From the IMG/VR virus record IMGVR_UViG_3300037423_000868, positions 1-50,822 of that record: 50,822 nt of DNA; one strand, 5' to 3'. Shown piece by piece: positions 26,189 through 29,474 of this stretch (the first letter of the stretch is position 1; each line of letters opens with the position of its first letter). This stretch comes from a virus. Its lineage: Duplodnaviria; Caudoviricetes. A program made the position numbers and the translations under genes. Under the pieces are notes generated by a model, which worked only from the letters and a program-made list of their open reading frames with translations, was not told where the DNA came from and searched no databases.

Positions 26189-26228
26189 AGTAAACATAAG
26201 GCTACCGGAAACGCCCGTTATGCGTCGC
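26189..26228 (-). repeat. Xer/dif-like boundary site A
   Basis: Minus strand: GCGACGCATAA-18bp-TTATGTTTACT; TAA is the stop codon of 26218-26424. Confidence 0.6.
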
Positions 26229-26424
26229 GCACTTCCTTGGCCGTCATCAGCGCATCATGCGCCCGCGCCAATTTCTCCGCGAGATTCTGTGCGTATTGCC
26301 GTGCGCTATCTGTGACCGCCTTTTGCGCATGTTCCCGAAAAGCGCCTTCCTTGTCCTTAATCGCCACCATTGCCGCGATCAATGCCTCATCATCCATCAC
26401 CGCCACAAGCTGTTTAGTGCTCAT
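26218..26424 (-). CDS. Hypothetical protein (cassette-like ORF)
   Basis: SD GGAG, 68 aa, ends DA-stop inside site A. Confidence 0.7.
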   Translation of the reverse strand: MSTKQLVAVMDDEALIAAMVAIKDKEGAFREHAQKAVTDSARQYAQNLAEKLARAHDALMTAKEVRDA

Positions 26425-26438
26425 TGGTATCTCCGTTT

Positions 26439-26467
26439 TGTTTACAGAATCCCGAATTATGCGTCGT
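26439..26467 (-). repeat. Xer/dif-like boundary site B
   Basis: Minus strand: ACGACGCATAA-TTCGGGA-TTCTGTAAACA. Confidence 0.6.
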
Positions 26468-26720
26468 TAATGGTGCCATTCTTGTGAATGCCAGCTCGCA
26501 GCTTTTGCCGCGCAGCCTCATACCTCGCGTTCTCCTTACGTTCGGAACGCATTTCCAGCAAGGCAAACAGCGGGGCCAGAGGCAGCAGAAACAGGCACAA
26601 CAGCCGCACAAACAGCCCCCATATTGCGCCGACCAATGCCGCTAGGGATTCATCGATGTTTAGCCACATATTTAACTGATGGGTTGTCTGCTGCCGTAGG
26701 TAGTAGGAGTATGGGCGCAT
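26457..26720 (-). CDS. Small membrane protein (cassette-like ORF)
   Basis: SD AAGGA; one long hydrophobic segment; ends DA-stop inside site B. Confidence 0.68.
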   Translation of the reverse strand: MRPYSYYLRQQTTHQLNMWLNIDESLAALVGAIWGLFVRLLCLFLLPLAPLFALLEMRSERKENARYEAARQKLRAGIHKNGTINDA

Positions 26721-26756
26721 TTTCAGGTATCCTTTTTACGCTGGCTGATAATGGTT

Positions 26757-26796
26757 AATTGACATAAAGCTGCCGAAAACGCCGGTTATGCACCGT
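26757..26796 (-). repeat. Xer/dif-like boundary site C
   Basis: Minus strand: ACGGTGCATAA-18bp-TTATGTCAATT; spacer similar to that of site A. Confidence 0.65.
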
Positions 26797-27259
26797 TCGT
26801 CTGTTTCAGGATGGCATCGATTGCGGCATCCAGTCCTTCCGGCGTGTAGCAGGTATCCGGGTTATATGGTCCGCTGACCATCGGCATGGCACTGTGCCGG
26901 CGGTCCCGTAACGCGCGATACCGTTGGGCATCCTTTTCCAGCTCGGCAATGCGATGCGCAAGCCACTCGATCTGCTTCACGGCGTTCATGAACTCATGCG
27001 TTTCCGGGTGCGCGATAGGTGCGCCGGCCTTGTGCAGCGCCTTGATGATGTCGGTACGGTACTGCCCGGCCGTGCTCTCGAAATCCACCTGAATTGGGAT
27101 GCTTTCGATTTCCATCACCTGAACCGGCGCGGCATCCAGCAAGGCCCGCGCTGCCGCGTAGACATAGGGTTTCAGATCGGTCAACCCCTCTTTGATCGTG
27201 AAGCCGTTAGCGAGGAAGATTTCGCGGATTTGCTCATTCGTCATCGTTGTATTTTTCAT
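26786..27259 (-). CDS. Ead/Ea22-like mosaic hypothetical protein
   Basis: IREIFLANGFTIKEG..DLKPYVYAAARALL and LEKDAQRYRALR..LDAAIDA motifs common in lambdoid early genes; start may be 27259 or 27244. Confidence 0.7.
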   Translation of the reverse strand: MKNTTMTNEQIREIFLANGFTIKEGLTDLKPYVYAAARALLDAAPVQVMEIESIPIQVDFESTAGQYRTDIIKALHKAGAPIAHPETHEFMNAVKQIEWLAHRIAELEKDAQRYRALRDRRHSAMPMVSGPYNPDTCYTPEGLDAAIDAILKQTNGA

Positions 27260-27278
27260 ATTGGATATTATGCGACGC
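27251..27278 (-). repeat. Xer/dif-like boundary site D (canonical 11-6-11 geometry)
   Basis: Minus strand: GCGTCGCATAA-TATCCA-ATATGAAAAAT versus E. coli dif GGTGCGCATAA-TGTATA-TTATGTTAAAT. Confidence 0.65.
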
Positions 27279-27600
27279 GCCGATGGCACGGCCCGAGGCC
27301 GCACGATGGGCAAGTGCGCGGGTAGGGTTGACCGGCTTCCTTCATGCGCTGCTGGCAAGCTATCGGACCCACTTTGCTCGGCGGCATTGGTGGGGCTGGC
27401 GGAATGGATATGTTCACGTTTTGCCATTTTTTGGACATATCCGGCTGATATGGCGATGGCGTGAACATATTGATCGCCGCCTGCCAGCCTTCCCATCGCG
27501 CCCGCACGAACTGGTCGATGTACTCGCCGGCATTGTCCTTTTTGGCTTGCCGCGAGGACAGTTGAAAGTGCGCCTCGAAGGCGGCGCGGGTATCGGTCAT
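27268..27600 (-). CDS. Hypothetical protein with C-terminal YPRTC..CGLGPC motif
   Basis: SD GGGAG; RAAFEA..WEGWQAA motif; ends VA-stop inside site D. Confidence 0.72.
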   Translation of the reverse strand: MTDTRAAFEAHFQLSSRQAKKDNAGEYIDQFVRARWEGWQAAINMFTPSPYQPDMSKKWQNVNISIPPAPPMPPSKVGPIACQQRMKEAGQPYPRTCPSCGLGPCHRRVA

Positions 27601-27620
27601 TTCGGTTCTCCCTACGCTGT

Positions 27621-27848
27621 TCAAAGCATTGCCTTTATCTGCGGCAAAGCATCGCGCAGATTGGTCCATTGCGCATCGCATGATGAACGCCAGCCAATTG
27701 AAGTCAGCAGTTCCGCCAGCCGTTCATGTACGGGAGGGAGGCAATGTTCCTCTGCGAAATCACACAAAACTTCCAAGGCCTTGCTGTCGTAATCGTTGAG
27801 TGATACGCCAAGGTTTTGCATTGCGGCAATTGCAGTTTTGATGTCCAT
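27621..27848 (-). CDS. Hypothetical protein
   Basis: SD AAGGA, 75 aa. Confidence 0.65.
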   Translation of the reverse strand: MDIKTAIAAMQNLGVSLNDYDSKALEVLCDFAEEHCLPPVHERLAELLTSIGWRSSCDAQWTNLRDALPQIKAML

Positions 27849-27884
27849 GATTATTATTCCTTCGTTTTAATCGGAAAAAAGTGA

Positions 27885-27928
27885 CGTATGGATAAGGTGG
27901 CGTATTAAGACGCCCGGTTATTGGCTCG
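27885..27928 (-). repeat. Degenerate boundary site F
   Basis: Minus strand: CGAGCCAATAA-22bp (contains GGCGT..ACGCC stem)-TTATCCATACG. Confidence 0.45.
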
Positions 27929-28151
27929 GTATCAGCGCGATCTTTCGCGGCTGGTAACGCGCGTCAATGCAGACCATCTCCGTGCGCTCCTTCGGCCAGT
28001 AGAGCGAAGGCAGGCGCACATTGCCGGCCAGTTCCTGCGATACCCATCCTGATTTTCCAGTGGCCGGGTCTTCAAACCAGACGCCCCACATCTCGCAGAT
28101 CGGCTCGGCTACTTTTTCATCAGCCACTTTAGACTCCAAAATGTGATGCAA
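27918..28151 (-). CDS. Hypothetical protein (start uncertain)
   Basis: 77-aa ORF between sites G and F. Confidence 0.5.
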   Translation of the reverse strand: MHHILESKVADEKVAEPICEMWGVWFEDPATGKSGWVSQELAGNVRLPSLYWPKERTEMVCIDARYQPRKIALIPSQ

Positions 28152-28190
28152 GGATAATGGCGCTTATCAGACGGGGTATTTATGGTGTGC
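28147..28190 (-). repeat. Degenerate boundary site G
   Basis: Minus strand: GCACACCATAA-22bp-TTATCCTTGCA; spacer shares CGTCT..ATA..CGCCA with site F. Confidence 0.45.
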
Positions 28191-28989
28191 GGTGCAGCAT
28201 GGCGTCGATGTAATCCGTCATTGCCTTCCGCGCCTTGGAGCAGTGATTGAAGTAATCTTCTTTGCCCGCCATGTCTTCCACCACATCCATGTAGTTCGCC
28301 AGCAGAACAGTGAACTGACGGTCGCCAGCAATGCTTTTCGGCTCCTGCGCCCCGCTCGGCGCTGTCTTGTCGCGGCCATTCGCATGGCAATAGGCCGGCG
28401 TGCTGCACACGGCCTGATCGTGCGAGCAAGGAACCTTGTGACGCGCCCCGCTCGGCGCTGCTGGTGCGGCAATGGGCCGGGTCAATCCCTTCCGCGCAAG
28501 CACTCCGATTTCGCGTAGCAGCGAGGCGCGTTGCAACGCCAATTCCTTCCAATGGGCTACTTCATCCTGCTGCGGCGCTGCTGGTGCGGCGGCAACATGC
28601 GCGGTCGCTGTTGCGCCTTCCGGCCACTTGGCGAATCCGCACTCGCACATCACAACGCCTTTGCCGAGATCGTCAGCGGGCTTCCAATCATGCTGATGTG
28701 CAGTCTGCGCATCGCCAGGCGCGGCGCTCGGCGCCGCGATCTGTGCGCGCAGTTTGTCGTTTTCTTCCTCCAGGCTGGCGATGGTTTCGCGGGCGAACTG
28801 AAGAACCCGGTCATTCGCGGCGCTCGGCGCTGCGGCGAGGGCGGCAATCAGCTTGTTACCGCGCTCCACTTCCACATTGCGCCCGATGTAACGCGAGCAG
28901 CCAGAATCGCCGTCCATCTTCCCGTCGTTATAGCCATCGTCATATGCGGCCCGGATGGCGTCTTTGATCAGTCTTTCTGAATCAGTCAT
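28180..28989 (-). CDS. Mosaic early protein with repeated AAPS/AAPAAP linkers
   Basis: SD AAGGA; modules separated by AAPSAA, AAPAAPQ and APSGA linkers. Confidence 0.75.
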   Translation of the reverse strand: MTDSERLIKDAIRAAYDDGYNDGKMDGDSGCSRYIGRNVEVERGNKLIAALAAAPSAANDRVLQFARETIASLEEENDKLRAQIAAPSAAPGDAQTAHQHDWKPADDLGKGVVMCECGFAKWPEGATATAHVAAAPAAPQQDEVAHWKELALQRASLLREIGVLARKGLTRPIAAPAAPSGARHKVPCSHDQAVCSTPAYCHANGRDKTAPSGAQEPKSIAGDRQFTVLLANYMDVVEDMAGKEDYFNHCSKARKAMTDYIDAMLHRTP

Positions 28990-29008
28990 TGGGTTTTCCT
29001 TCAGTTAT

Positions 29009-29045
29009 TCCGAACATTGGACGAAACGCCTCAATTACGTACCGT
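29009..29045 (-). repeat. Degenerate boundary site H
   Basis: Minus strand: ACGGTACGTAA-TTGAGGCGTTTCGTC-CAATGTTCGGA; GGCGTTT also occurs in sites A and C. Confidence 0.4.
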
Positions 29046-29394
29046 CGCAAAGGCCGCCCATGTTCACCGGCTTGCGCAATTCACTCAGCACTGGCTCGAC
29101 CTGTACCAGTACCGTTGCCGCCCATTGCGGGTAGATCGGCTTGCCGCCTTCTTGCTTGTCGCAGGCATAGTCATCCATTGCTTCCTCTGCCAGCTTCTCT
29201 ATTGCCACGAGAGCCTCCAGCATGACCGGCGCAGCTTGAATCAGGTTCGCATTGGCGTAACTGTTCAGGTCAGATCGCAGCACCCGGCAGACGCGCGGCA
29301 GCGTTTGCACACCGCTCGGCTGGCCGCGTAATTCAGTCGCGCCTGTACCGACACACTTGGACCACGGGCCTTGGGTATGGACAAAGGTACTCAT
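29035..29394 (-). CDS. Hypothetical phage protein (HT.GPW...ANA.LI.AAP.MLEAL family)
   Basis: Characteristic motif; SD GAGGAG. Confidence 0.78.
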   Translation of the reverse strand: MSTFVHTQGPWSKCVGTGATELRGQPSGVQTLPRVCRVLRSDLNSYANANLIQAAPVMLEALVAIEKLAEEAMDDYACDKQEGGKPIYPQWAATVLVQVEPVLSELRKPVNMGGLCDGT

Positions 29395-29444
29395 GCTCTT
29401 TTCTCCTCTTAGGTGTAATCTGTTAGGCGTAAAACAGAATGCCG

Positions 29445-29474
29445 ATTTGTCATAATCCGGCGGTTTGCTCTCAT
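29445..29474 (-). other. cer/dif-like site I at the head of the array (candidate plasmid dimer-resolution site)
   Basis: Minus strand: ATGAGAGCAAA-CCGCCGGA-TTATGACAAAT; good XerD-type arm, 8-bp centre ending GGA as in ColE1 cer; left arm is poor. Confidence 0.5.

Follow-up and report, generated by a model that had tools for sequence, protein, structure and literature searches.

Dif-like sites at the gene junctions of a small-gene array in a soil phage-plasmid

We describe here an array of small genes, and the short sites that punctuate it, in the genome of a tailed virus (Duplodnaviria; Caudoviricetes), IMG/VR record IMGVR_UViG_3300037423_000868. The analysed stretch, called below the window, has 50,822 bp and 63% GC; the viral record is complete and carries direct terminal repeats. 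Downstream of a plasmid module and on the minus strand, a helix-turn-helix gene (HTH62, 29668-29480) is followed by eight small genes, A119 to H68. The initial annotation of this DNA had placed eight short co-oriented minus-strand open reading frames here, and all eight were found in place. The GC content of the array region falls to 50-60%. None of the array proteins belongs to a Pfam family, and PHROG matches were obtained only to groups of unknown function. We read the region as the hypervariable accessory-gene array of a soil phage-plasmid whose host probably belongs to Burkholderiaceae. The array genes are as follows.

29035..29394, minus strand: gene A119, phrog_1273, function unassigned
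28180..28989, minus strand: gene B269, with internal GC-rich repeats 96 nt apart (repeat family D1)
27918..28124, minus strand: gene C68, between class I sites B and C; alternative starts GTG 28126 and TTG 28151
27621..27848, minus strand: gene D75, stop codon TGA, no site after it
27268..27600, minus strand: gene E110, N-terminal 42-48 residues conserved, C-terminal part not
26786..27244, minus strand: gene F152, 157 aa if started at ATG 27259
26457..26720, minus strand: gene G87, hydrophobic middle section, sub-threshold TraL match only
26218..26424, minus strand: gene H68, final gene of the array

The ends of these genes are unusual. As first reported, seven of the eight stop at TAA, D75 with its TGA being the exception; outside the array, TAA closes 15 of 67 genes in a rough gene call. 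The proteins of E, F, G and H all end in alanine followed by the stop (GCA-TAA), as VA, GA, DA and DA. Seven two-arm sites had been listed after seven of the genes as representatives of one kind, with arm spacings of 18, 7, 18, 6, 22, 22 and 15 bp. All the listed 11-mers and spacings are correct, and the grouping stands for E, F, G and H, which are dif-like. It does not stand for B and C, which belong to a different class and had been mis-parsed, or for A, which is unsupported. Sites E, G, F and H, together with site Z, constitute a real, cross-validated dif-like family at gene junctions.

29445..29474, minus strand: site Z, after the HTH62 stop, absent from the earlier list
27251..27278, minus strand: site E, GCGTCGCATAA-TATCCA-ATATGAAAAAT, 11-6-11
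26757..26796, minus strand: site F, ACGGTGCATAA, 18 bp, TTATGTCAATT
26439..26467, minus strand: site G, ACGACGCATAA-TTCGGGA-TTCTGTAAACA, 11-7-11
26189..26228, minus strand: site H, GCGACGCATAA, 18 bp, TTATGTTTACT

E, G, F and H each have a pair of inverted arms of some 11 bp whose inner ends read ..ATAA and TTAT.., and so does an inner parse of B and C. The central region measures 6 bp in E and in the inner parses of B and C, 7 bp in G and 18 bp in F and H. Site E has the best dif-like geometry in the window, and Xer-compatible spacing is combined with dif-like arms only in E (6 bp) and G (7 bp). The right arm of E contains ATG 27259, the alternative start of gene F, which is also the start in the public gene call (P0001, 157 aa). 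The XerD-like arm of Z, TTATGACAAAT at 29455-29445, and the right arm of F each match TTATGTCAAAT, the XerD arm of Burkholderia mallei, at 10/11 positions. TTATG is kept in F, H and Z, which match this B. mallei reference arm at 8-10/11. Sites F and H are parts of a shared 55-nt repeat (family D2, 75% identity). Site H lies between the last array gene and a convergent metallophosphoesterase gene, and in the equivalent place the related locus L001, described below, has a canonical 11-6-11 site. The window also has, between the metallophosphoesterase gene and H68 (26095-26130), a perfect 13-bp inverted repeat, TGTAGAAATTATT / AATAATTTCTACA; read by eye, it is likely a bidirectional terminator without a T run.

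The family was evaluated with a two-arm position weight matrix (PWM) trained on six sites of two other phage loci only, L001 and L101, and scanned over the whole 50.8-kb window. With spacers of 6-8 bp, the three top matches genome-wide were E (23.4 bits), Z (21.1 bits) and G (21.0 bits), and the next one reached 16.5 bits. With spacers of 6-22 bp, the top five distinct sites were F (24.9 bits), E, Z, G and H (19.2 bits), all located at junctions on the gene strand; all five thus lie on the minus strand with their arms in the same order, the identity of the arms being ambiguous. In 200 shuffles within 500-nt blocks, which keep local composition, a mean of 0.035 hits of at least 21 bits per genome was obtained, and 2 were observed. 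The reverse scan of the 94-kb record G003, with a PWM from the window and L001, placed L101 sites 2 and 3 at the top (24.8 and 24.3 bits), followed by 19.8 and 15.2 bits. For the held-out locus L108, a PWM built without it gave 27.9, 21.7, 20.2 and 19.8 bits as best matches, all of them in the array. Seven control loci gave a maximum of 19.5 bits, and the highest among them were low-GC loci. 

Simpler patterns were also counted. An independent dif core, ATAA-N6-8-TTATG-NN-A with at most one mismatch and not derived from the array sites, matches in the genome only E, B and G, the means in 100 dinucleotide shuffles being 0.28 (6-bp spacer), 0.33 (7 bp) and 0.36 (8 bp). The window has no perfect copy of this core. 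GCATAA occurs nine times in the genome on both strands, and four of these are the stops of E to H. All four occurrences of TAA-N0-6-GGCGTYT lie at array stops (A, C, F and H), and two of the three occurrences of TTATGT are in F and H. The gene-end flanks of F and H align with a score of 40; for 2211 other gene-end pairs the highest score is 34 and the 99.9th percentile 27. The scores of B-C (21), G-H (20) and E-H (19) lie only near the 99th percentile.

The same site type punctuates small-gene arrays in three other recombinase-free phage records. Locus L001 (record G001, 49% complete) has tail genes, the metallophosphoesterase (61% identity) and ParA (30% identity) in common with the window. 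Its array, made up of unrelated small genes, stands between the rep and metallophosphoesterase genes. Its last array gene ends in GCGAGTCATAA-TATTCT-TTATGTAAACT (L001:10961-10934), a perfect dif core. Five perfect hits were found in 100 loci totalling 1.1 Mb, and this is the sole one among the high-GC loci. Compared by eye, each arm of site H is identical to it at 9/11 positions. Two further L001 sites have spacers of 8 and 16 bp. L001 also has near-perfect 11-6-11 palindromes at 12511-12484 and 12303-12276 (TATTGCGATAA-N6-TTATCACAATA and a close copy). They lie directly behind rep and the next small open reading frame, are probably iterons rather than Xer sites, and were excluded from the PWMs as such.

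Locus L108 (record G087, 47% complete) has ParA, Rep (47% identity) and an origin region homologous to that of the window, and then a collinear array. L101, in contrast, belongs to an otherwise unrelated 94-kb record rated complete (G003) with only three gene pieces in common with the window, and yet sites of these kinds surround its E-like gene, its HNH endonuclease gene and its B-like fragment. The HNH gene (L101:6370-6960; phrog_59, E=3e-45) encodes a free-standing homing endonuclease and forms a single unit between two dif-like sites, its last codons being part of a site (..TATGGCCGATAA). Since so few gene pieces are shared, a common phage-encoded protein that binds the sites is unlikely, and no DNA-binding gene common to the window and G003 was found at E<1e-5. 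The E-like N-terminal domain is common to three of the four records.

Closer relatives were not encountered. DNA searches of phage and plasmid collections returned short matches only, two DNA pattern scans gave no additional loci, and searches with F152 and A119 gave no related loci. The array proteins are absent from 51 viral loci taken with the metallophosphoesterase and from 4 Rep loci. No close relative appeared in a metagenome scan (40 loci, at most 63% identity) or a genome scan (3 loci).

Sites B and C form a real, conserved and separate class (class I) with the core GATAA-N6-TTATCC.

28147..28190, minus strand: site B, class I, outer CCATAA at the stop codon
27885..27928, minus strand: site C, class I, outer CCAATAA at the stop codon

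In the new parse, site B consists of CCGTCTGATAA (28174-28164), the centre GCGCCA and the right arm TTATCCTTGCA (28157-28147), with ATAA-N6-TTAT at 28154, which is the dif core with one mismatch. Site C consists of CGTCTTAATAC (27912-27902), the centre GCCACC and the right arm TTATCCATACG (27895-27885). The right arms of B and C agree with the XerD-type arm at 4/11 and 5/11 positions, which is chance level. The class I core is conserved at L101:5480-5507 and L108:4605-4620; for example, 22 nt of site C are 91% identical to L101:5486-5507 (E=0.035). At site A (29045-29009, after A119) the partner arm is likewise at chance level (4/11) and there is no PWM match; GGCGTTT stands 4 nt past the stop.

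If the sites serve as cassette borders, then genes in related phages should change at them. This is only partly the case. C68 is flanked by two class I sites, and L108 and L101 have a single such site at the matching place; this is an insertion or deletion exactly between two sites. The left arm of E and its centre TATCCA are kept in three phages (L101:6336-6341, L108:5283-5288); the right arm differs among them (matches to TTATGTCAAAT at 8, 7 and 8 of 11 positions) and is followed each time by a different gene. The right-arm 11-mer of E recurs in L108 ahead of another gene starting MTN. The replacement of D75, on the other hand, does not follow the sites, as discussed below. Gene comparisons also revealed mosaic proteins. 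The N-terminal 42-48 residues of E110 are conserved at 83% in L101 and 77% in L108. The first 30 residues of F152 form a domain common to many otherwise unrelated phage proteins (70-97% identity), and its homologues mostly share that domain only. The repeats of B269 (28565-28847) contain stretches of 31-35 nt that are 97-100% identical to a 264-aa gene at L108:3923-4334, and the two genes do not align outside the shared repeat-associated stretches. In metagenome contigs, joints to short, 85%-like pieces of other organisms were seen inside genes (26953, 27129, 27473) and none at a site; we take them as evidence neither for nor against recombination.

Comparison with published dif sequences concerns both the enzyme and the host. 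The dif centre is 6 bp in all proteobacteria covered by one survey and reaches 8 bp in plasmid sites with accessory sequences; the dif sequences consulted in Table 1 of the same source all have TTATG, and B. mallei dif is given there as ..TCGATAA-N6-TTATGTCAAAT, with TTATGTCAAAT as XerD arm (PMC2731167). Fifteen right arms from the four records match this arm at 7-10/11 positions, where the chance of at least 7 is 0.0097 per fixed position. The pattern ATAA-N6-TTATGTCAAAT occurs one to three times per genome in 19 of 81 genomes (29 matches) of the family of the Burkholderia metagenome-assembled genome behind locus L100, and the reversed control pattern gave 0 in the same 81 genomes. Relatives of the metallophosphoesterase are found in Nitrosovibrio, Polynucleobacter and a Burkholderia metagenome-assembled genome, and DNA of the window was found in soil and rhizosphere metagenome runs, two of which are possible sources of it; identical pieces occur in X3. 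Searches with the major capsid protein, ParA and Rep fixed no host. Given the dif-arm likeness, the metallophosphoesterase relatives and these runs, a host in Burkholderiaceae is plausible. Elsewhere in the window, the intergenic region upstream of the major head gene (3276-3310) contains ..TTCGCATAA, a perfect beta/gamma-type XerC-like arm with no partner arm.

The rest of the genome bears on the question of who could recombine these sites. The tailed-phage structural genes include a major head protein, terminase subunits and a 1639-aa tail gene; a lambda O-like initiator and a DnaB-type helicase are also encoded. Genes related to recombination are a Sak4-like annealing protein and a Mu Gam-like protein, and there are two HNH endonucleases. 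The plasmid module upstream of the array has these features.

31746-31105: ParA, with a small gene downstream of it
30803-30216: Rep-like winged-helix protein
30050..30200, minus strand: plasmid origin region behind rep, four palindromic iterons (GCTCAGTGTGAGC-like)
30050..30200: DnaA boxes TTATCCACA and TTATACACA in the origin region
30034-30007: promoter-like site that could drive the array

Heptad repeats CACTTCA / CATCACT, which are parC-like, lie upstream of parA (31780-31890), and the origin region is conserved with L108:2805-2987, the stretch at 30050-30200 with L108:2942-2987. The reading of the element as a phage-plasmid is confirmed by ParA, the Rep-like protein, the four iterons, the two DnaA boxes and the parC-like repeats. 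No tyrosine recombinase (PF00589) was detected at E<=1 in the complete 50.8-kb record, while the control search was positive in 14 of 14 genomes, and no resolvase or serine recombinase (PF00239) was found in the window. The earlier statement that the phage encodes no tyrosine recombinase is therefore correct, and since the plasmid module is present and both families are absent, the description as a phage-plasmid without a recombinase holds. Neither family has a match in records G000, G001 and G003, and G087 has none to PF00589. At some distance from the array, AATAAAGCCCGCACGAAGCGGGCTTTATT at 39371-39397 is a GC-rich hairpin between A and T runs that resembles an intrinsic terminator; it sits between a 125-aa gene and a repressor-like gene (39415-39891).

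How are the dif-like sites to be interpreted? Our leading reading, which we favour tentatively and at somewhat less than even confidence, is that these sequences serve as sites of host XerC/XerD for in-register exchange of cassettes, perhaps also for dimer resolution. It leads because the motif stands at non-orthologous junctions in four recombinase-free records, because its right arm equals a family-specific XerD arm and because a shared phage-encoded binder is lacking. In these sites an XerC-like arm (..CGCATAA), which often provides the last sense codon and the TAA of the upstream gene, is paired with an XerD-like arm near TTATGTCAAAT. Under this reading, host XerC and XerD would bind the dif-like sites, and strand exchange there would allow co-resident phages or plasmids to swap or add cassettes in register. 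The differing centres would serve as junction-specific addresses, and resolution of plasmid dimers may be a further role of one or more sites. Addition of cassettes one at a time and expression from a single upstream promoter, both proposed in the initial annotation, may be part of this scheme.

A broader proposal is possible but doubtful in our opinion. It says that, in soil Burkholderiaceae, tailed phage-plasmids lacking their own recombinase assemble and rearrange integron-like arrays of small genes via host XerC/XerD at junction-specific dif-like sites. The left arm, which carries the stop codon, would remain attached to the upstream gene together with the centre, and the downstream gene would take the right arm along. 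It would include a new three-part layout of an outer arm, about 12 nt, a 6-nt centre and the XerD arm.

Several observations weigh against host XerC/XerD as the enzyme, an idea favoured by the resemblance of the arms to dif arms of the plausible host family. The arms of F and H are 18 bp apart, and those of L001-N16 and L108:3691 are 16 bp apart. In all four an ..ATAA arm stands 16-18 bp from a very good XerD-like arm, a recurring layout that to our knowledge is not that of any known Xer site. Site E has ATATG and site G has TTCTG in place of TTATG, and no ATAA-type arm stands 6-8 bp from the XerD-like arm of Z. The Xer model accounts neither for class I (B and C) nor for the 16-18-bp layout seen in F and H. 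The centres differ among sites of one array, so that excision within one array is unlikely. The orientation of the arms cannot be fixed because ..TCGCATAA is also the complement of alpha-proteobacterial XerD arms, as far as the published examples go. The dif arm of the phage's own host may differ from the B. mallei reference. The statistics have weak places as well. The match counts of the fifteen right arms are biased, except for the three at position E, because the sites outside the window were partly picked by eye for ATAA/TTATG. The shuffle control with spacers of 6-22 bp is weak (mean 0.9, maximum 5, against 5 observed), and a hidden Markov model built from F and H alone misses the L001 copy among its top 12 hits.

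Other difficulties concern the extent of conservation. Site Z falls in an island of 67 nt (29472-29406) with 84% identity to L108:3421-3487 (E=9e-15), and site C in a 44-nt island with 77% identity to L108:4605-4648 (E=6e-4); both islands extend beyond the 28-bp core and reach the following ribosome-binding site. Where D75 is exchanged for its counterparts, the borders fall at ribosome-binding sites, not inside a site; gene replacements have borders at start codons as well. Mosaic breakpoints are also located inside genes, since E-like genes change after residue 42-48. All this fits ordinary recombination in conserved spacers.

These facts are the strength of the first alternative, which we rate as rather unlikely. 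According to it, boundary sequences are conserved for their expression signals, and homologous recombination, general or phage-encoded, shuffles the genes, as at the stem-loops of T4-type phages or at lambdoid module boundaries; the likeness to dif would be vestigial or coincidental. The Sak4-like annealing protein and the Mu Gam-like protein of the phage agree with this. However, such conservation leaves unexplained why the same two-arm motif appears at non-orthologous junctions and why the consensus right arm equals the family-specific XerD arm. The expected signals are also missing: four promoter-like sites were found against 3.8 expected, with none at a site, and no stable hairpin was found: eight spacers folded as RNA, on the transcribed strand only, had z-scores of -0.77 to +1.44, none significant.

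We consider it quite unlikely that the sites are operators or roadblocks for a DNA-binding protein other than Xer, host- or element-encoded, that tunes transcription of the array. The stoperators of cluster A mycobacteriophages are an example of such sites. In its favour, the sites stand at gene ends in the direction of transcription, the array opens with a helix-turn-helix gene, and the E-like N-terminal domain recurs in three of the four records. This explanation would also cover the class I sites (B, C, L101:5480-5507, L108:4605-4620), which are conserved yet not XerD-like (4-5/11). Against it stand the lack of a DNA-binding gene shared by the window and G003 at the threshold given above, an arm spacing of 6 to 18 bp, intolerable for a single dimeric regulator, and the atlas look-up for E110, in which no match above 0.80 was obtained.

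A single functional Xer-dependent dimer-resolution site of the cer/psi kind per replicon, with the others being decayed copies, duplications (F/H) or AT-rich chance matches, appears very unlikely. In its favour, a plasmid that has ParA and Rep but no resolvase of its own requires a site of this type, the perfect dif core of L001 is present there just once, sites F and H go back to duplication of one 55-nt element, and the array is poorer in GC (50-60%) than the genome (63%). Against it, composition-preserving block shuffles expect 0.035 hits against 2-3 observed, several sites per array lie at junctions with unrelated genes in four records, and the window itself has no perfect core.

Three further candidates were rejected. 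An RNA element does not fit, as no Rfam match was obtained at E<=1 (25500-32200), the folds are not significant and the alignment of F, H and the L001 copy has no covarying structure. A reading as promoters or terminators fails on the promoter counts given above. The iterons and parC-like repeats of the plasmid module differ from the sites in sequence.

Among known systems the array works most like integron cassettes, IMEX arrays (integrative mobile elements exploiting Xer) and pdif modules, yet it departs from each in a defining property. Integrons hold co-oriented, mostly promoterless small genes, and the site at each 3′ end can overlap the stop codon. The window similarly has a co-oriented array of small genes with stop-overlapping 3′ sites. 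Integron attC sites are folded palindromes of 57-141 bp, whereas those of the window measure 28-40 bp, and no IntI was found (PF00589, as above). Without IntI and palindromes of attC size, the array is not an integron.

In IMEX arrays, each new insertion leaves behind dif-like sites that are hybrid and in part degenerate, and one end of the array keeps a good site. Those of the CTX/TLC type at chromosomal dif are, in the accounts consulted, mobile DNA that uses host XerCD without a recombinase of its own (10.64898/2026.06.12.731946, 10.1101/2021.09.09.459576); for the window, use of XerCD is a proposal. Unlike them, the array lies on an autonomous phage-plasmid and its units are single small genes, not whole phages. 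Since the array is part of a free genome, which has direct terminal repeats as well as a plasmid module, and does not sit at a chromosomal dif, it is no IMEX array.

The cer and psi sites occur once per plasmid and have about 180 bp of accessory sequence. As in the window, these Xer core sites, with centres of 6-8 bp in the survey cited, are carried by plasmids without their own resolvase (PMC2731167). The window differs in having several sites per array, and no accessory region was identified in it.

The pdif modules of Acinetobacter Rep_3 plasmids are alike in that many XerC/XerD-like sites bound small modules in the accessory region of a plasmid (PMC13125923, PMC13141974, PMC6449649). The element, as these sources describe it, likewise carries no recombinase of its own. 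Their sites are described as strictly 11-6-11 with neighbours inversely oriented (PMC13125923). In the window, all dif-like sites are co-oriented with transcription, and for this reason the array does not fit pdif modules. Moreover, its sites often overlap stop codons, half of them have an arm spacing of 16-18 bp, and the element is a tailed phage-plasmid of a probable beta-proteobacterial host.

In T4-type phages, promoter early stem-loops (PeSLs) are conserved intergenic motifs on either side of variable small open reading frames in hyperplastic regions, and insertions and deletions map to them (PMC2839356, PMC4122927). According to the same reports, a PeSL combines an early promoter with a terminator-like stem-loop and acts through homologous recombination, while the sites of the window have a dif-like motif, no promoter match and no stable hairpin.

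In the literature on Xer sites in phage-plasmids or phage gene cassettes we found no description of such a system. With short sites and known candidate enzymes, the Xer hypothesis lends itself to direct tests. If it is true, tailed phage-plasmids would join IMEXs and pdif modules as Xer-exploiting mobile DNA, in a new group of hosts. Gene shuffling in tailed phages is usually attributed to recombination of the homologous or illegitimate kind; site-specific exchange of cassettes by means of host enzymes would, if true, be a new evolutionary route for phage genomes.

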